From Microbotryum violaceum (Eukaryota), in the NCBI GenBank assembly GCA_001244265.2, contig LN717261.1, forward strand, positions 2,247,591 through 2,311,590: a stretch of 64,000 bases of DNA, read 5' to 3'. The notes under the pieces were generated by a model that was not told the DNA's origin, ran no database searches, and saw only the letters and a program-made list of their open reading frames with translations. Positions 23,696 to 34,314 of this stretch are shown here, in pieces. Numbering within the stretch: position 1 is the first letter of the stretch; each line of letters opens with the position of its first letter. Both the position numbers and the translations under genes were made by a program.

Positions 23696-23831
23696 CACCT
23701 CTGGCTATATATATAAGCACGCTAATAAGTGGCGCGCGCCGCGCGCCTCCGACCCTCGCTTCCGCGCGACGTAGCCATACATGTTGCCCCCCCTGCAACC
23801 CGGGTTGCTGGATGGCGCGAGGACTAGCGCA
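23696..23831 (+). repeat. Left terminal inverted repeat (136 bp)
   Basis: Reverse complement of 34179-34314 with 7 mismatches by manual comparison. Contains a TATATATATA run and the palindrome GCAACCCGGGTTGC (23795-23808). Confidence 0.97.
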
Positions 23832-23998
23832 ACTTGCTAATGAGATTGACCTATTATTAGGGAGTACTTGTGCAGTCGCCCGCAGAGCTGTCTCTTCCAG
23901 CCTCCCCCGCTCAGCGCCAAATCAGACCCGCCTCAGTTCTAAGACGAGCACCAACTATTGTAACACACAGTAATACATTCTCGGATTTGCATCAGACA

Positions 23999-26900
23999 AT
24001 GGGCAGGCATAAATGGAATCGCTTCAAGTTCCGACCTGACTACTTCGAGGGACATCCTGACTATAAGCCCCGACGCCTTCGTTCGGACCCTCAACTCCGC
24101 ACCAACATCCCGGAACCCGGCACATGGTTACGTACACTGCGCGCCAAATTCAGCAAAGAACCTTCAATGAACATGCTCGTGGCGAAGCTAGCTCGCCGTC
24201 TCCTCGGCCTCCAATGGCCCCTCCGATTCAGGCCGATTTCGACGAAGCCGCCAACCCGAGTGGGATGGATTGGGATGATGAACGCCACAGCGAGTACGGT
24301 GGTGGCTATGAACGCGACTTTAGTCCGGCCCCATACTTTCCGGATCGAACATCCCATATACCAATCGCGCCTGACTATAGTGCAACCGCCGAGCGATTAT
24401 CACTGGCTGATCTGCGCCAAGACGAAAGTTTCGAACCAGCCACACGTGGTCAGTCGAAGCAAGAAACGTACAAGCAGTTCGTGTTCAACGACTCTCGTCT
24501 TAGGCGCTTGGAACGGCCAGCGCTTCTGCGCCAGTACATCGCGTTTTGCGCTGGGGTCAAAGGTCATCTACGGCCCTTGATTGACGTGGACGAGGAGCTG
24601 TGCCAGGGTTCGGTCGCTAGCGAAGTGCCGCCGCCTTGTTCATGCGAGAGCCCCCTCACATTACTGCTTGACGTGTACGACCTCATAAGCTGTATGTGAA
24701 TAAGGCAAGTTGGGTCACTGTGTCGAATAACGCGCTGACAAGGTCGAATCGATGCAGTGGTCGAGGTACCGATCGCTTTTTGTCCGAGATCCAGCAACGA
24801 TAGCCCATGCCTTACGTACGCCGAGCGCCTTGCTCAGATCGGATTGATCGGATCGACCGCAGCTGCTCCTCGCTCTGCCTTCACCTTTCGACTTGTACAA
24901 TTTCTCGACTCCTGGTGGAGGACCGCGCCGTTTCCTGTTGATGGAGCAGCTCGCGGGCTCGACATTTTCTATGAGCAAACTGGATGGGGTCGGCCGGGCC
25001 TGAGTCAGCATAAATTCGTGAGCTCGACCCCCTGTCATGGTTGCTATTGATCATTGTCTGATATTTATCATCGTTCGCGCAGGACAAGGAGCTGCGAAAG
25101 CAACTCCAGCGCGCCCTTGACGAATTTCGGGCTCTCACGACATCCGAGCGAGAATTGGGCGACCTCGTCCTCGGTGTCGCGGGTTCTCTCTCGGATAAGT
25201 GTCCAGCATGCTACGGATCGACGCGTCTAGATCAAGCCCACCATAGAGTCGAAGTGCAGCATCTTGTCGCTCTGGATGGCAACTTCCAACATTCTCGCGA
25301 CACCTCAGCCAAACACGATTTTCAGGAGTCGACGCCAGCCCTCTTCATCGGCGAAGGCGAGCTCGAATCGATGAAGGAGATCTGTGATGGTGGCGACAGC
25401 AAGAAGTTAGAAAAGGTCCGCTGATCCGAGCCGCCCCCTGCGATCCTCTCAACGCGCTGACGCCCTTCCTCTCGCGTCTTGAAGGCCTGTGCCGATTCGT
25501 GGAAAGCGGCCAACGGCGGTGCGACACAAATCTCGCGGGGCAAGTCCGATACGGGCCTAGTTGTCTGTGTTTGCCGTCACGATATCGCGTTGAAGATGAT
25601 CAACTTGTATCAATCAGGCGAAGAGGTTCGTCAGCTCAGCTCCTCTCTCAACCGCTTACAAGGCCTGACGCTTGTTTTTGATGAGGCAGGCGCTACTACG
25701 GCTTATCGCTGCTGCAACATATTTCGAACCAACTCCCTTCCAACGATACACTCGGAGTGCTGTATGATGTTGCGTGTAATTTGGACGGCTACATGCAATC
25801 GGTCAGCAAGAGTGGCGGATCCGTCGTTCCTTAGATTTCTGGCCCTGGGGCGCCGCTGACCTGTACTGTACTTCGATCGCCTGCAGAGAAGTATCCTTCC
25901 CGATCTGTTTCCGAGATTGAAGTTTGCCACGAGCGTGTTTCATGCTTTTGCTCATCAATGGCCCTGCCAGCTTGAGTACAACCCGCGCCTGATTCAGCAC
26001 TTTGGGTTGACGGATGGGGAGGGATGCGAACGCGTTTGGAGTCAGCTCCGATCGCTCATCCCGATCAATCGTCCTGCGAGCGCTTCTCACCGGCGCGTCA
26101 ACATCTCGCGTCGCATCGACCTGATGAACAAGAACGGTGTTGACAGCCTCGGTATACTCTGCCATCCACACTTTCACGCCGTGTTCGTTACTTAATTGTG
26201 CGGTCCCTCCGAATGCTCAAGATCAGCTTGGAAGGACACAAACTGATCTGAGTGACGTTTCGGCAATATGGTCCGAGTCTGACCTTCTCGCGCAATGGGA
26301 TTTACAACGAGCTGCTCAAGCGGCCACAACGGCGGGTCAACGTCGGGAGAACGAGGACAAGGAGCGATTAGAGCTGTTTAACATTGTACAGAGGCTACAC
26401 CACATGGAAGAAAGGCTGTACGTTCGGCGCGTCAAACCCCATTGGAGGACGAGGGCGTAAAATTGACACTGTGTCTTGGCATTGTGTGTTCAGATTCGAT
26501 CCAATGGCTTCCGATGAAGCGAAGGCTCGCTTGCAGCAACAGCTAAGAGCTTACCAACAAGAATACGATCGCACGAAGGAGCTTGCAGCTTCAGGTGCGG
26601 CGCGCGTCCTATCTTTATGTGTATCGCCACCTGATGTTTGATGTCCCATGACATACCTAGATTTCCAGCATTTGTGCAACTGCGTAGTCAAACTTCGCGC
26701 ATTACACAAAGCGACGGTCCAATTGCAATGCTGTCAAGAACGAATTGACTCAATGGGTCGCGGACGAAGCGGCGCAACAATCGGTCAAGTCGAAGCCAGC
26801 AAGCTTGTCAGCGTCTCACAGACGCACAGCAAGAAAGTAAAAGTGGCAATCGATATGTACAATAAAGCGGTCGGGGATTACCGAAATGCTGCGACCGAGC

Positions 26901-28019
26901 AATCGACCCAGATTCTGGACAACTTACCGCTCGCTACCACAATCAAGTCGCTTGTGACTCTGTCGCCAACGGACGCTTTCTGGCAAAACGGTTTTTTCGT
27001 ACACGACACTGCGCCTTGGGCGATTGATACCGATGTTCAGAAAGGGATCAAGGCGGTTTTACTCAAAGCCAGGGCGGGAGAAGAGATTCTCCGGATCGGA
27101 GCTGAGGTTCGACAACTACTTGCGTGGCTCGAAGATGAGGACACTCGCTTTGTTAGGGTATCTCAGGCATGGGCAGAGGACCGAGGTGAGATGGACACAC
27201 CCTTTCTTTGTGTTGGTGCTGTACCTTACGTCGCCCCTTCTATTAGTTCCCGAAGAAACGCTCGAAGCGGCTAAGAAACTTCTCGGAACTGACGGCGCGG
27301 GCGAGGTTGGCACTGCGGTGTGGCATGTGCTTCAACGCCGGCAGATTTAGTTCAAAGAGCGTCTGGATCGGCTGGCCGAACGCGATGATCTCTCGGTTGT
27401 CTGGTTTAGAACGCGTTCACTCGCACTTCATGAATCGCGGCCCTCGGCATTTGGTTTGATCGGGGGACTTTTCGCCGGACGGGCGAAACAGGTGTCGCGC
27501 CATTCGCGCAGTAGTCCACGTCATTTCGGTCGCCGCCATTCGACGCTAAATAATACTCAAATGCAGAGCCCCATCGCTGAGTCGAGCCGCAGCTTATCAG
27601 GTCCCTCTGCCGTGGACGTGCGCCACACACCCATCGACCTCGACGCATTCCGAAGGGAACTTGGCCTGACCCCCGATCCAGCCGCGGAGCAGGCCGAGCG
27701 AGACCGTGATGACGTGTATGAAAGACGAATGGAAGAACTTTTGAGTTCACTATCGGAGCAGGAGGTCGAGGAAGAAGATGATGCTGAGTACGGGGAGGGC
27801 GACGGAGAGTCGGGCTCGACAAGCGTTGAAGACTCGGACGACCTCGAGATTCTCGACGGAGCCCATGGGCTAGCTAGGGATGGTTTGGCGCATTTGTTGA
27901 CTGTAGGTTATTTGTTATTGAAGGACTTTGCTTTTTTTATGCGGCCCATATCGCACATGGTGGAATGTGGACGCCAGTGCACAAAAGTAAAATGGATGTC
28001 AGCCTTAATGAGGCGTTGA
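23999..28019 (+). pseudogene. KDZ transposase with N-terminal CxC1-like cysteine cluster; intron-containing and probably disabled
   Basis: Motifs: CSC...DVYD; FCP...LAQIGLIGST..PRSAF; KCPACY; LDGNFQH; CADSWKAA; DTGLVVCVCRHDI; LGVLYDVACN; SVFHAFAHQWPCQLEYNPR; GLTDGEGCERVWSQL; APWAID..VQKGI; RAGEEILRI; acidic tail. There is an apparent frameshift near 24120 and an in-frame TAG at 27348-27350. The 3' end is uncertain. Confidence 0.9.
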
Positions 28020-28387
28020 CGCGTTGACCACGATCCCATGAGCCGGTCGCCACCGCCACACTCACCGAACTGCAGTACGTGACAAGCTTGAAGGTTCTGC
28101 TAAGTTGAAGACTAAAAATTGGTGCGCATCGGTGCTGACATTTGCAGGTTCAGGTTTGGGAACGTTGCCAGAGGGGGCGGGGGCGGTGAGGATTGGTGTT
28201 GCTGTAGTTGTTCTGTTCCAACAGCACCCCGAAGTGGGTCCAGACGCGTCCAACGGCGCTCCGTTGTACAGTGCTTGCGATAATATGTCAGCAAAAATCA
28301 ATGAAATACGTCACCGCATACCTACTCCGTTGACGTGATAGTTTATGAAGTCGGATATTGGTCCATCGGCCAAGGACATTGTAGGGG

Positions 28388-29028
28388 CTGTGTACTCCCG
28401 GGGGTACACACACACAGAGTCGGCGCGCGATAAGAGTGTAACCCCGGGGACCCGGCCTGTGCCGTCGACAAAGCTGTGTACTCCGGGGTACACAGTCATT
28501 CGGCGCGCAGGGTGTGATCACTCCCGGGGTACACAAGGCGCAAGCGGGGCCCCCCGGGAGTACACAGGCGCTTTCGGGCTTGCGCCTTGTGTACCCCCGG
28601 GGTGCCAAGCCGGTCACCGGTGGCAGATCACTGTATAATAACATGTCCGATTCTACACCGGCAGGCGGTTAATCCTTTCGGTAACTTCAGACACATCCTG
28701 GGCTTTGAGCGGGAGCGTGGAAGTTTGTTGTAATGCAGTTTCGCTCTGCTCGGTGGTTCGAACGGAGATTCAGTTAGAGAAGTGCATGGGCCTTGCGGGC
28801 TTTTCAGAGTGCAAGTCGGATGTAGCAAACGAATATTTCGTCGGTTTCGTCGCAGGAGGGTGTTCCATTCAGTAACTGCAGACACATCCTGAGCTCTGAA
28901 CGGGTGCGTGGAAGTTTGTTGTAGTGCAGTCAGCAAGGACGTCGGCGACGGACCGCGCCTGAGCCGTGGAACCCCGGGAGTACACAGCTGGAGAGGGCAC
29001 CGATCATGTGTACCTCCGGGGGTACACA
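28388..29028. repeat. Cluster of 8 full or partial GTGTAC(Y)CCCGGG(R)GTACAC palindromes, a hairpin with a ~27-bp stem, and an internal 59-bp direct repeat pair
   Basis: Copies are centred near 28399, 28445, 28484, 28525, 28555, 28598, 28975 and 29017. The inverted pair is 28519-28545/28578-28604. The direct repeats are 28681-28739 and 28872-28930. Confidence 0.93.
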
Positions 29029-29326
29029 CCGCCACGCCGGTTGTACAGTGCTTGTTAAGAGTGTCCTAGAATTGATGAAGCATGTCGTCGCATACCGCTT
29101 CCTCATTTCCGGAGGCGCGGGACTCTGTTGTAGTGTATCTACGCCCTGCCCTAAGGTTTAAGATTGAACTAGAATTTCCGCCTTCGGAGTGCGTTGTACC
29201 TCGGAGTGAATCATGATTGCAGAGCAGGATCTCCATTAACACAACATACAAGCTAGACAGCTACACACGCTCACGGAAAACTCGGGATGGTCATCGCCTA
29301 ACCGGTGAATTGACACTCATGGTGCC

Positions 29327-30774
29327 TCATGTCCCAGTATCCAGGCCGCGCTCCAGCTCGCTCAGGCTGGTCAGCTCGGAGAGGGCGGAGAGGTTGCTTT
29401 TGGCCTCCGAGCTGGCTGCTGATCCGTGGTCGGAATGTTGGCCGGTTGCCGAACTGTGTTCCAATATCGCGTCGTCCTCTCATGCCCCTGAGGTCGACGC
29501 GGCACCCTCTCCGCCGGACCCCTTCTTGCGCATCCAACGCTACACGTCTCTCTGTTTGCTCGACAGCGCCAACCACCTGTGCGCACACTCAACAATTCAG
29601 GAGTCCCAGATCTTCTTCCTTTCGGGCTCGAGGTCCGCATCGGTGGGCGGCTTGGGAGGTTCGGGAACGTGGACGAGCACCGTCGTTGCAAATCGTCTGA
29701 GCGCTGCTTGCCAGGTGCGATGTTCGCTTTCTAACTGATCCCGGTAATCGTCCGGGACACGTTTCCCGAGAAAAGGGCGGTACGCCTTTCGGATCCATCT
29801 TAAAAGGCGGTCACTCCCCCTCCTGGTCCTCGTCGGTCCTTACATCGTCCTCAGGGAGGGGGCGTTGGCACTCTTGGTACAGGGGTGAAAGGATTTCACT
29901 GAATAGGCGCAATTCCTCATGTTCAGCGGCAATGTCGACGGGGACGGTGAAGATGCGCGCGAGGATATCGTCGAAGTCTTGGATGCGGGTCCTATACTCC
30001 TTCAAAACTCTCGCGCTCCCTCCACCTCTCTTTCGCTTCTGGTTATCGTATGCATCGAACAACACGTTCCTCCAATGGATGAGCACGGTCAACAGGCTCC
30101 GAGGCAGACGTCCATTCGCTTTGTACCCTGCCCATTCATCCCAAACAGGCCACATGACGTAGTCGATCTCCTCCCGGACCTCATAGTCAAAATTTTCGAC
30201 GCCCTCAGGGATTGGGTCTTGAGTCATGATGTCTTTGGGTTCCATCACCAGCCGACGCGCCCTTTCCGCCGCCCACTCGTCGTGCCTCGCACGGTCCGCT
30301 TTCCCCGGCGCCTCCAACATGTCAAGCTTGGCCTGCAACTGCCGGCGGTATCTTTTCTTTAGGTGGCCAAAACCCTAATCAGATCAGATAAGTACATCAA
30401 CAAAGGTTTAGCCGAATTCCATATAGTTTGTTTCTGATCTCCTGGGAAAGCTGTCTAGCACTCACTGCTTGGACCTCACAGTCGGTACCGATCAGCTCAA
30501 ACGCCGCCTCGTTGCATCTGTACCGACTGTCGACCGTAGACGAATTGAACGCGCGCTTGTGTATACGAATGATTTTTTTGTTTTGGTTTCGTTTGGCCTC
30601 ATGTGCATGTTCCGGTGCTACAGTTGGTCCGTCGAGTGACCTGTACCCTCCAGGCAGCTTGTAGTGTCTGTTGCAAAGTTCACAACGGACACGCCATTGG
30701 CCGGACTCGTCACGGATGAGATGCGAGTCGATGTCGAGCCAAGCGCGCTCGCCCTCGGTGGCGCGTGGTGCCAT
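29327..30774 (-). pseudogene. Transposon cargo gene of unknown function with an N-terminal CxxC...H putative zinc finger; 3' part has stops and a frameshift
   Basis: MAPRATEGERAWLD...WRVRCELCNRHY...EHAH. A phase-0 GTGAGT..TAG intron joins EVQA to GFGHLKKRYRRQLQAKLD (ORF 29811-30338). The protein-like frame continues past several stops (KKIWDS*IVECAHRW...). Confidence 0.55.
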
Positions 30775-30836
30775 GTTGGAACTTGGAGTGGGGGTGAGGG
30801 GTGAGATCGGTGAGAGGGAAAGAGCAGTGTCCCAAT

Positions 30837-30857
30837 GTGTACCCCCGGGGGTACACG
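30837..30857. promoter_or_regulatory. Isolated perfect palindrome GTGTACCCCCGGGGGTACAC between divergent cargo ORFs; candidate operator
   Basis: The sequence is seen directly, about 60 bp from ATG 30774 (-) and about 90 bp from ATG 30949 (+). The regulatory role is inference. Confidence 0.55.
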
Positions 30858-30948
30858 TCGCGCCTCGCGTCACCTCACGTCACCGAGCGCGCGCGCTCTC
30901 CTCTCACAGCATCACCGACACCGCGCGCGTCACAGCCGATCCGATCCG

Positions 30949-31605
30949 ATGCCCTCAGCGAATCACGACAAGTTACAATCAGCGATTCTCTCTGCAGGAC
31001 ACAAAGGTCAAGGTCATCGAGTATTTGCACGAGACAAGATATACTGGCCACCTGGCACATTGCCTGTCCCAGACGGGAAGCAACTTGAATACGTAGTCGG
31101 CACCGAGCGCGTCGGACCTATATGGAAGCTTGCAGTGTATGCAAGCGACTCGGCCAACAACGAGCTTTGCTACTACGAAGTCATTGACGCCTCAGCACCA
31201 AGCTGCCACTATATCGATGCCGAGTTTACGCGCCCTTCCATTGACAATTCAGCAGAAAAGGCATTGATTACGCGTAATGCAGCGTCGTATCTCCCTGGCA
31301 CATATGGTCAGCTAGCCAGCTCGGACACCTTGCGATCTTGCGTCTGCAGGTCAGAACTGCCGAACTACCTTGTTCCCTGCTTCTGTTTTATATCTATTGT
31401 TCCAGCGTCAACGAACAATCTCGGCTTTCATTCTCACCGCGGGCACACCGTTTGGAGAACCCAACGCGAAGCGTGTTATTACGGACATTCTCGACAGCTT
31501 GAAGGTTCTGCTCTCACTTCGCCGGCGTCTCGGGGGTCCGAAGGGGTAGTCGGAGAAATTTGGGTGCTTTGCTGTTGTCACCCCCAAGCTCTGGGGCGAG
31601 CTTAA
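30949..31605 (+). CDS. Hypothetical cargo ORF divergent from 29327-30774
   Basis: Open frame MPSANHDKLQSAILSAG...IYWPPG...LEYVVG...WKLAVY...YYEVID. No family recognised, and introns are possible. Confidence 0.35.
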   Translation: MPSANHDKLQSAILSAGHKGQGHRVFARDKIYWPPGTLPVPDGKQLEYVVGTERVGPIWKLAVYASDSANNELCYYEVIDASAPSCHYIDAEFTRPSIDNSAEKALITRNAASYLPGTYGQLASSDTLRSCVCRSELPNYLVPCFCFISIVPASTNNLGFHSHRGHTVWRTQREACYYGHSRQLEGSALTSPASRGSEGVVGEIWVLCCCHPQALGRA

Positions 31606-31918
31606 CTGCAGTTTGACATTAGGTAGGATGCGTGAGTGCTTTATTTGGACATCCATTAAATGCCTGAATTGAATGTCCGGAGTAAAGTCTAAAACGTTAG
31701 GCGTCAGTAAATCTATTTGCTTTGCGATCAAAATCGCGTCGCATAATTGATCAACGGACGAATCAGCTAGTCAAGATGCGTGGAAACTTGTTGAATACCT
31801 CTTGCCACACATAGGTCAATATCACCTCAACGACTACAAACAGTTTGGCCATCTATCTCAACGCGCAATAGGCGCACCAACAATATACTGAACAACAGAA
31901 ATGTAGTCGGATTCGGAA

Positions 31919-33780
31919 TCAGGATGTTGCAGCTCCCAAATCAGCATCAGAATCGGAATTAGAATTAGAATCAGAACCAAGATCAGAAGCAGAAGCAGAA
32001 TCAGATCCAGAGACTTGGTCTTCTGGCTCCGTTTCCAACTGACCGGTTGTCACAGTACCTTCGGCACGAGTGCGGTCAAAAGAGCCCTGGCCTATCTCCT
32101 CTTTGAGTGAGAAAGTAAGGCCACCCTGTCGCATCAGAGGGATGATTCTTCTCAAATCCGCAACGGTCGGCTTCTTGCCATTTGTGGGACTGCGGAGATC
32201 ACGCTCTTGAAGACCATTTCCGAACTCGACAATAAGAGCGATTGGATCCTTCGCAAGAGTTGCCTGGTTATAACTCGTAAGCTTGGAAAGCACGTAGGGC
32301 TGAGTAGATCTATTTCTCTGGTGGTGACGACGGAGCGCTTGATCTGCACGGCCACAGATGTTCAGTACTAGGCTGCAAAATGTGGGCGCAGAGCCGTGGA
32401 ATGGTTGCTCACTATAGTGATCGCCGATTATGATGCTATACCATGCGCAGAGCACTCGTTGAGACGCCTTGTCAACATCGCCATGATTAGCTGCTCATCA
32501 GATTTTGGATTCAGCGCCAATCCAACACCGAGCACAAATTACGTCCTAAAGCTTGCTTGACAAACCCCGCATCTTATATTGTTCATTTTGCTCCTGATTA
32601 AACCGAGTGCCATTAACTCAATCCGTGAAGTTGACTAGAATATCTTTTTGCTGGTCAGAATCCCAGCCTTGGCGCCGCATGAAAGCTGCGCCGCCAAGCG
32701 TAGAAACGATAAAACGATCATTTTTGTTCTCGAGCTTGTTCGAGCTGACGATGACTAACGCGTCGAAGCCGTAGCCCTCAGCATACTGCTCAACCTAATT
32801 CGGTGCCGAGCTACGTAAGTCAGCAGGGGGAACTTGGCCTCTGAGGAGGCGGAAGCGGAGAGCCGAGTCTTCACGGACCAGCTCGTTCATCGCATTTTCG
32901 TATCTGCGCCGCAGTTTGGAGATGGTAGCAGAATCGATTCGCCATCGCTTGAGGGGCCGAGCGGTCTCCTTTCGATCACGCGCTTCACTTGCCCTCGCTT
33001 CCTTCCATTGTTCCCAGAGTTCTGGTGAGTTTTTGACTTGTTCCCAGTAGCGTGATCCAATCGCCTGTAGCGCAGAGAAGTCTTTCGGGACTTTGTAGGG
33101 GTCCGAGTGATGGATTTGTCTGTCAGAGTAGCGTCTTGTAATGGAGAGCAAACGGTTTCGGGATGAGTCAGGAAGGCAGACGCTACACTTACCCTCGAGT
33201 CCGTTCTTTTCGAGGAGACAACGGAAGAAGCGGCTGGTCTTGAAGTCATTCCAGTCGTTTCGGTCGTTGCTTCGAGTCGCAGGGGGCGTGTACGAGTCGA
33301 GATCGTCGTCCCGAACTCCATGCCGCAAACAGTATTGCATCTTTTCGAGGCGACGTTGCAAGTTATAAAGCACGTGGGTCTCCTTTTGCGACGATGACAG
33401 GCGCGAAGTCGAAGGCAACGCTCGAACGGCATCGTGGAGGGCTCGGATCTCATCCTGAACCTCTTCGATTCGATGACTCATTGAGTTGGACGAGTTGGAC
33501 GTGGTCGGCCTTGAGGCGAGCGTCGTGCTTCGTCCATCTTCCGCGATGCTGGAAGCAGAAATGTGGTGCTGTTGTGTCTGAACGGTCGCTGAGGACGACA
33601 GTACAGACCCCATTTCGGGGCTGCTGGTCGATTGCACCGAAGCATCTTCGGCGGTAACAACGAGGAATGAGGAGTAGGGTCAGCAGACAATAACAAAACA
33701 ATCAAGACACGAGGACGCGTCTCACGGTCGGGAGCGGCAAACGCTGACGCGTTACTGGGAGCAGACAGGAGAGGCAACAT
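31919..33780 (-). pseudogene. KDZ-element companion gene convergent with the transposase (helical, possibly HMG-like segment); contains in-frame stops
   Basis: The spliced reading is MLPLL...|...NDWNDFKTS...IGSRYWEQVK..PELWEQWKE...RRYENAMNEL|VEQYAEGYGFDALVIVSS...GGAAFM...NFTD*VNG...SKL*, then ORF 31919-32455 with an acidic S/D tail. Stops are at 32618-32620 and 32546-32548. Confidence 0.6.
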
Positions 33781-34178
33781 ATCGTATGGTCGGATGGCTT
33801 CGAGTCAAGATATACGACCGAAAGCGGAAGGGAACAGAAAGTAGTAAGACCAGGACTGTGATCGATAACGGCGCGTCAAGCGGCAACGCTATCGCTCGCT
33901 CGCGCTCAGGCTCGCTACGGCCGGTCTACCAGCGTGGTGAGATGGCACGTGACTTAACCACGTCCATCAATGCTACCTTATCCCCACCGCTAATGAGGTA
34001 ATGATGTAATGATGTTCTAATCGATCTTCTTCTCGCTACTAATCTAAAGAAGAAATTGACGATGAGTTTTCCGAATATGCTTTATACACAATGGCAGCAT
34101 TTATAAGATTGGATTACCCCGATACGAGCTCGCACGTACATGAGATGAACGTGTTGAAGGCCACACCAGCCTCCGTGC

Positions 34179-34314
34179 TGCGCTAGTCCTCGGGCCATCC
34201 AGCAACCCGGGTTGCAGTGGGGGCAACATGTATGGCTACGCCGCGCGGAAGTGAGGGTCGGAGGCGCGCTGCGTGCGCCACTTTTTAGCGTGCTTATATA
34301 TATAGCCAGAGGTG
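34179..34314 (-). repeat. Right terminal inverted repeat (136 bp)
   Basis: Reverse complement of 23696-23831. Confidence 0.97.

Follow-up and report, generated by a model that had tools for sequence, protein, structure and literature searches.

What is a cluster of G/C-centred palindromes doing inside a fungal transposon, and to which element does it belong? The question is raised by a 64,000-nucleotide (nt) stretch of Microbotryum violaceum (GenBank assembly GCA_001244265.2, contig LN717261.1, positions 2,247,591 to 2,311,590 of the forward strand; hereafter the window, whose own numbering is used), in which eight full or half copies of a palindrome are followed by a zinc-finger gene, one further, perfect copy and the 5' fragment of a primase-helicase gene, all within a DNA transposon of the KDZ type. 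We conclude that these parts, together with the 191-bp repeats among the array sites, come from a small nuclear element without a transposase, of which they make up one arm and the middle, and that the KDZ transposon captured this arm and middle and then multiplied them. This kind of small fungal DNA element, with a primase joined to an origin-binding helicase of herpes-like type, is apparently undescribed; no description of one was found in the mainly open-access literature covered.

The array comprises six palindromic sites, full and half, with differing spacers at 28390..28610, and two additional sites 42 bp apart at 28966..29027. Their centres map to positions 28399, 28445, 28484, 28525, 28555, 28598, 28975 and 29017, with centre-to-centre spacings of 46, 39, 41, 30, 43, 377 and 42 bp, and the initial annotation had thus correctly described six closely spaced sites (30–46 bp) with two more about 380 bp on. 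The unit it gave, an 18-bp GTGTAC-CCCGGG-GTACAC, has to be replaced by one of 20 bp, GTGTAC-YCCCGGGR-GTACAC, with an 8-nt core: when up to three mismatches are allowed, the 18-bp consensus finds a single match in the window and the 20-bp pattern finds five, against none in 100 shuffles. In the 53 kb of the window that lie beyond the element, the core CCCCGGGG does not occur at all, and 27 control stretches, together 239 kb, contain it once. Five different array spacers measure 41–43 bp, about four helical turns, a length also found in 73 of 103 short intervals from 26 related arrays of the same transposon family (the window family) in this genome, which comprises 33 Mb in 20 contigs; copy counts here and below are lower bounds, taken from the listed matches and the fetched stretches. 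Across the window-family copies, the two half-sites vary independently of one another, asymmetric sites occur in both orientations, and site-spacer units are deleted or inverted from copy to copy. Between the two site clusters lies a 191-bp tandem repeat (28661..28930, + strand), of which a marker is matched one to five times per copy in 26 copies; in one copy (L025, G000:C2 ~1651200-1652200) these repeats are interrupted by about 0.9 kb of inserted DNA with a poly(A) run at its end. The box TTGTACA is present at 28264..28270 and again at 29041..29047. Two similar intron-like stretches of the form GTATGC...AAG, at 28265-28325 and 29042-29096 on the minus strand, both end beside TTGTACA boxes, and no matching joint was among those listed. 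A coding reading of the array (CTPGGTH repeats) was dropped, its frame being broken by indels and inversions. The lone, perfect 20-bp palindrome, a candidate operator, lies at 30837..30856 with its centre 102 bp before the primase ATG, between the ATG at 30774 (− strand) and that at 30949 (+ strand), just where it had first been noticed.

A search with the protein starting at 30774 revealed relatives of 44% identity at three genomic places, all of them chromosomal. Here the zinc-finger gene is divergent from a full primase-helicase gene, whose product is 67% identical to that of the fragment starting at 30949, and no KDZ gene is nearby. The copy on contig C3 spans 1925145-1942283 and measures 8.1 kb once an inserted long terminal repeat (LTR) retrotransposon is subtracted; it reads, in order, array arm, leftward zinc-finger gene, palindrome, rightward primase–UL9-like helicase gene and inverted array arm. 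Both of its ends carry, in inverted orientation, CCCCCCGGGGGG sites with the dyad core CCCCCGGGGG, the TTGTACA box and 190-bp repeats, and a short terminal inverted repeat, which genome-wide was found only there, closes the element; no target-site duplication (TSD) is visible. The left arm holds seven sites (one degenerate) and the right arm one, the copy on contig C1 holds eight (three degenerate), and nine of the 12 genome-wide occurrences of CCCCCCGGGGGG fall in copies of the relative. Besides the two main genes and the retrotransposon, the 8.1-kb element contains a Piwi fragment, and scans of the Pfam and PHROG type recognised no recombinase, resolvase, integrase or HUH nuclease in it. Of this structure, the window retains a single arm together with the zinc-finger gene, and the primase gene is present for its first 585 bp.

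Some further features of these loci may be recorded here. The retrotransposon (G000:C3:1930311-1939347) has identical 279-bp LTRs, sits within the primase-helicase gene and itself holds a second one. The Piwi fragment derives from an Argonaute Piwi domain (PF02171, E 3e-23; L081:6382-6798, − strand; G000:C3 ~1926240-1926980) and sits between repeat units of the left arm; RNA from it could target a host silencing gene. On contig C1, an 18.7-kb fold-back of 98.9% identity (G000:C1:2423013-2441683) contains two copies of the relative; in the copy there, two lone sites precede the primase ATG, one by 101 bp and the other by 158 bp. A piece 37% identical to zinc-finger exon 2 is found at G000:C13:1054828-1055013 (− strand), with no array and no primase in the 15 kb around it, and is perhaps from a third family.

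The two families are far apart, 50% of the synonymous sites in zinc-finger exon 2 being different and little of the arms being alignable beyond the core. What is conserved across this split is the dyad core, in the array and at the promoter, the TTGTACA box, which follows the palindrome clusters in the relative as well, the repeat length (190 vs 191 bp) and the lone site. Homology of the repeats themselves is weak, as its score was reached in four of 100 shuffles and by local alignment in 35 of 300. The centre of the lone site lies 101–102 bp before the primase ATG in seven of the eight window-family copies that keep the region (the eighth has no site) and 101 bp before it in both relatives (2/2), in spite of the DNA between site and ATG being unalignable across families (85 of 500 shuffles reach its score); the distance from ATG to ATG differs by 87 bp, on the zinc-finger side. 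The proposal made at the outset, that the element encodes a DNA-binding protein and carries an operator for it along with a multi-site array, may thus stand in so far as core, array, lone site and zinc-finger gene are all kept in the relative; the element to which they would belong is not the KDZ.

The KDZ transposon that now carries the module measures 10,619 bp (23696..34314, + strand) and has 136-bp terminal inverted repeats (TIRs) of 95% complementarity at 23696..23831 (+) and 34179..34314 (−). Its multi-exon CxC1-KDZ transposase gene (24000..28019, +, limits approximate) matched the KDZ domain PF18758 above cut-off at E 2e-22 and CxC1 below it (one exon, E 3e-5, 24.5 bits vs a cut-off of 26.9), and contigs of runs X16 and X18 contain its GT..AG joints. 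A second KDZ gene (31922..33679, −, limits approximate) has CT..AC joints in X16 and was matched by tblastn in three other KDZ loci, of families without the module. The 16-bp KDZ terminus pattern has 66 genomic matches, of which L047, L048 and L056 have nothing else in common with the window family, so other families use the same 16-bp end. By eye, clean 8-bp TSDs flank nine of 19 two-ended KDZ copies, and none is seen at the window copy. All 19 two-ended copies contain the array, which is also kept in at least 11 copies of a 4.3–4.5-kb non-autonomous derivative composed of the left end, an inverted 27296-30041 and the right end; since these derivatives share one junction, retention there counts as about one event. 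The joints of the derivative (L006-L015, L059) also occur in contigs of runs X4 and X12. Comparison of the window element (23696-34314) with G000:C2:370721, C2:1645870 and C1:395129 distinguished two end types, about 80% alike in their ends and second gene and 90–100% identical in the middle (transposase and module), a shared middle that suggests recombination between subfamilies.

In 11 stretches from other KDZ loci there was no array, one of them having a 125-bp piece of the zinc-finger gene, and the palindromes that these families have near their left ends are different ones. With the relative that lacks KDZ, they indicate that the array is cargo of the transposon and not part of it. A CCCGGG-centred palindrome in the TIRs, which the initial annotation related to the array, does exist, as GCAACCCGGGTTGC at 23795-23808 and again at 34202, and has only CCCGGG in common with the array; a connection between the two is unlikely. 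Nor is the motif the subterminal repeat of a miniature inverted-repeat transposable element (MITE) or CACTA family scattered apart from these genes: the 20-bp pattern has at least 50 genomic matches, and all 50 of those listed lie within 60 bp of an element match, in window-family copies. Identity with CACTA or MITE elements was also rejected because the TSDs of the carrier are 8 bp rather than 2–3 bp; the array sites are subterminal in the relative, but the relative has no known transposase.

With its TIRs and 8-bp TSDs, the carrier would fit the Dileera type described in Puccinia and Cryptococcus. KDZ1-3 of Cryptococcus and the Dileera transposons are about 10 kb long, encode CxC1 and KDZ, and have TIRs, TSDs and extra genes (PMC11343200; PMC12730594), the TSD of Puccinia Dileera being 8 bp (PMC12730594). 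The window carrier resembles them in all of these features, and differs in its cargo of a primase-helicase fragment and palindromes, of which there is no mention in the accounts consulted. Kyakuja of Laccaria, with 7-bp TSDs and no TIRs (PMC12730594), is a poor fit to its 136-bp TIRs and 8-bp TSDs.

The partner of the zinc-finger gene points to replication, as judged from its predicted product, which would be a primase-helicase. The window fragment (30949..31533, + strand) is the 5' part of a gene for a primase of the archaeo-eukaryotic (AEP/PrimPol) type joined to a UL9-like superfamily 2 helicase; it is 67% identical in amino acids and 72% in nucleotides to the relative's full gene of about 4 kb and breaks off at 31533, after the first catalytic motif. 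The full gene has the primase motifs YYIDVE, KLSFHIV and VFDLVPYGQHQLYRL, which we take to follow the DxE, SxH, D scheme of AEP/PrimPol. Pfam returned nothing useful for the window fragment or for the zinc-finger protein, and pieces of the gene match the PHROG 'replication origin binding' at E 1e-5. The last exon found 124 matches among 1.84 billion representatives, with Podosphaera, Starmerella, Lucilia and Skeletonema among the named records. Of 19 homologs examined, 13 passed the Herpes_ori_bp (PF02399) cut-off, and a profile of 11 homologs matched, among solved structures, the herpes origin-binding protein (E 1e-12) and PrimPol (E 1e-4). Some homologs (P0035, and P0048 with its cluster) reach 2,200–2,500 residues with Ulp1 or UCH deubiquitinase domains, and fragments come from the diatom Skeletonema.

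The zinc-finger gene (29330..30774, − strand, 3' limit approximate) has a first exon at 30774-30466, an intron at 30465-30375 and a second exon from 30374. The intact protein has about 450 residues from two exons, and intact copies, among which are G000:C1:398422-399859 and the C3 relative, encode a C-x2-C-x32-H-x4-H finger after W-x-x-x-C, a pattern that recalls W..C-x2-C...H-x3-5-H, presumably the BED finger signature. The CELC motif of the putative finger pointed out earlier is present in the window copy, where the first His is missing and the exon-2 frame ends at 29814; part of the homopolymer frameshifts in the zinc-finger copies may be sequencing errors. As a lead only, Atlas assigns the protein to BED clusters at 0.82–0.83, with no usable match for exon 2. 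Structure models were poor for both exons (mean confidence, pLDDT, of 54 for exon 1, with strands and a helix, and 41 for exon 2). Runs X16 and X18 were treated as RNA on account of their GT..AG joints and X12 behaved as DNA, their contigs giving no strand, ends or level; one X16 contig has a 91-nt joint, 30375-30467, one base off the predicted intron.

Beyond this genome, scans of metagenome, viral and prokaryote contigs found no close relatives of the primase-helicase. The nearest homolog (41%) lies on contigs of 7,529 and 7,552 bp, and the longest contig measures 3.5–10 kb for most of the 30 homolog clusters looked up; short contigs being usual in metagenomes, their size no more than hints at discrete elements. 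A scan that started from a sister clade gave 17 metagenome and two viral loci, or 11 distinct contigs of at least 3.6 kb after exclusion of duplicates and short pieces. Three of the 11 have palindrome arrays of their own at an end: L104 begins with TAAATCGCGATTTA repeats, L107 with repeats of the CGATTTGAAATCG type, and the end of L117 holds 84-bp tandem repeats and palindromes. In L105 the gene is flanked by 2,147-bp inverted repeats, and L110 carries a 94-bp unit twice. Among the distant loci, some are probably pieces of giant viruses.

What might the sites do? The reading we favour, with a confidence somewhat above even, is that of a plasmid-like nuclear replicon, now decaying cargo, in which the array would serve as an origin or retention locus and the lone palindrome as an operator for autoregulation. 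According to this model, a protein encoded by the element would bind the dyad CCCCC|GGGGG on double-stranded DNA as a dimer; the BED-like zinc finger is the likeliest candidate, and the C-terminal part of the helicase a less likely one. The lone site, which precedes the start of the primase-helicase by about 101 bp, would set expression of the gene pair, and the many sites of each arm would either bring in the primase-helicase so that replication starts or act as a tether in the manner of EBNA1 and oriP. If the dyads are points of breakage or template switching, this could account for the deletions and inversions of site-spacer units. The independence of the half-sites and the two orientations of the sites suit a dyad on double-stranded DNA and argue against an RNA read from one strand. 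Within KDZ the module is probably decaying cargo, still partly transcribed, and it cannot replicate itself, the primase gene being cut.

A number of observations weigh against this interpretation. By eye, the window-family sites seem no better conserved than their spacers, and neither the GTGTAC arms nor the 42-bp spacing is kept in the relative, where the spacing is about 25 bp, so helical phasing is not general. The UL9 match covers positions 356–496 only, which is the first helicase lobe and not the origin-binding domain. A two-His finger with a full second exon is found in one of 17 window-family copies, and pooled pN/pS of the zinc-finger gene is near neutral at about 0.65 (0.4–2.3 by class). 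There is no Pfam BED match, the label resting on the motif; Foldseek and VIA-align found no fold match with the exon-1 model; and searches with exon 2 gave no homolog outside the M. violaceum genome. The spliced X16 contig differs from the window copy at its 5' end and so comes from another copy or strain. Among the distant contigs, six of 11 have neither an array nor a long inverted repeat. The array metric that scored 13 for L104, 9 for L107 and 4 for L117 also reached 4 or more in three of 28 genomic control stretches, which are not size-matched metagenome DNA, and it missed the window array itself, the cores of which are imperfect.

Other explanations account for part of these data. The palindromes could be structural sites of the parent element, acting in cruciform formation, nicking, resolution or recombination with no regulator to read them, and it agrees with such a role that in both families the palindromes contain or adjoin the end points of deletions and inversions and that one copy of the relative lies within the 18.7-kb fold-back. 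On the other hand, palindromic repeats rearrange unaided by slippage, the scans that recognised no recombinase, resolvase or HUH nuclease leave the element without a recognised enzyme for such sites, and a single site whose distance from an ATG is constant is better explained as an operator, so that we rate this explanation as unlikely. Somewhat less probable again is functionless debris, produced by fold-back and template switching around one G/C palindrome and inherited by descent. The seeming lack of better conservation in sites than in spacers speaks for it; it leaves unexplained that the core, the TTGTACA box, the repeat length and the distance from site to ATG survive 50% synonymous divergence, and that unrelated palindrome arrays recur next to distant homologs. 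A site-specific recombinase reading, with lox-like arms around an 8-nt core, was rejected, no recombinase being recognised and the arms not being kept in the relative.

Two suggestions of the initial annotation also have to be weighed. If the array were transcribed together with the 3' region of the transposase gene and formed regulatory hairpins or small RNAs, it would be expected to fold and to be transcribed, and indeed 28380-28620 folds at a z score of -5.2 and an X16 contig spans 28110-28488. Palindromes, however, fold by construction, and Rfam gave no match at E 0.5. Read from one strand, an asymmetric site would give a U-G pair, and read from the other a C-A mismatch, yet both orientations occur; whole segments are inverted between copies, and the lone site lies between two divergent starts. 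A structured RNA is thus a weak alternative, to which we assign a low probability. The second suggestion, a transpososome enhancer or decoy bound by CxC or kept for KDZ's own use, would explain why the array is in all 19 two-ended copies and in the 4.4-kb non-autonomous derivative, and the CCCGGG-centred palindrome of the TIRs could be counted in its favour. The shared junction of the derivatives reduces their retention to about one event, however, and with an array in the relative that has no KDZ and none in the 11 stretches from other KDZ loci, this suggestion appears slightly less probable even than the RNA.

The favoured reading, of a replicon with an origin or retention array and an operator, has partial counterparts among known systems. 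EBNA1 of Epstein-Barr virus, in addition to its sites in oriP, has sites at its own Qp promoter. The oriP itself consists of a family of repeats (FR) and a dyad symmetry (DS) element, read by EBNA1, which is not a helicase (PMC13483431). By analogy, the element here would share with it an array of dyad sites, a lone site at the promoter of its own gene and a non-helicase binder; it differs in that oriP relies on host replication factors and the element has its own primase-helicase, and no sequence homology was seen, no search aimed at it having been made. With UL9 of herpes simplex virus 1 (HSV-1) and oriS (PMC13483431) the likeness is one of homology in the helicase lobe, at the E 1e-12 given above, whereas the C-terminal origin-binding domain is unmatched here, there is no Box I/II with an A+T spacer, and HSV-1 UL9, unlike the helicase of the element, is not fused to a primase. 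Entomopoxvirus-associated Polinton-like viruses have a primase-helicase gene beside inverted repeats that were proposed as an origin (PMC11296320), the same neighbourhood as in the element; their helicase is a D5 superfamily 3 enzyme accompanied by a tyrosine recombinase and capsid genes, none of which was found here. A Polinton or Polinton-like virus was rejected, as the 8.1-kb element is without a recognised protein-primed PolB, integrase or recombinase, or capsid genes, and so was a Helitron, no HUH nuclease with a Pif1 helicase being recognised between the arms; in the C1 copy, and in no other, helicase-like scraps without a Pfam match are found beyond the arm.

Transpovirons are near 7 kb in size and have terminal inverted repeats. 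They are linear plasmids of Mimiviridae that encode a superfamily 1 helicase and a stand-alone zinc-binding protein (PMC3671162), and like the element they are small and capsid-less with a helicase gene and a zinc-binding protein. Identity was rejected, as the helicase here is a UL9-like superfamily 2 enzyme, fused to an AEP primase; the element moreover has two main genes instead of six to eight, spliceosomal introns and a place in a fungal nuclear genome, with no link to giant viruses seen. The 2-micron plasmid of yeast is a small selfish nuclear DNA with inverted repeats, a tandem-repeat locus, autoregulating proteins and Flp, and is replicated by its host. The element here is likewise small and nuclear, with inverted and tandem repeats, and differs in that no recombinase was recognised in it. 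A broader proposal, to which we give rather less than even weight, is that the element belongs to an undescribed class of nuclear DNA elements, 5–10 kb long and without capsids, which would replicate themselves in fungi and in other microbial eukaryotes, combine a primase–UL9-like fusion with a palindrome array as origin and retention locus, persist as an episome or linear plasmid and occasionally integrate. On this proposal, a whole control arm would here have been donated to a cut-and-paste transposon, and basidiomycetes would have their own counterpart of the 2-micron plasmid, one equipped with a replication initiator.

Nuclear plasmids are known from few eukaryotes, and are not known from basidiomycetes. 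The element would extend UL9-type initiators beyond large viruses. It also gives a reading for unnamed proteins of 1,000–1,500 residues on small contigs, and with two genes, a primase-helicase of its own, a candidate operator and a candidate origin it could be made into a vector that replicates in smuts, rusts and red yeasts. For M. violaceum itself, the finding is that a KDZ transposon acquired the control region of a second selfish element and spread it through one genome.

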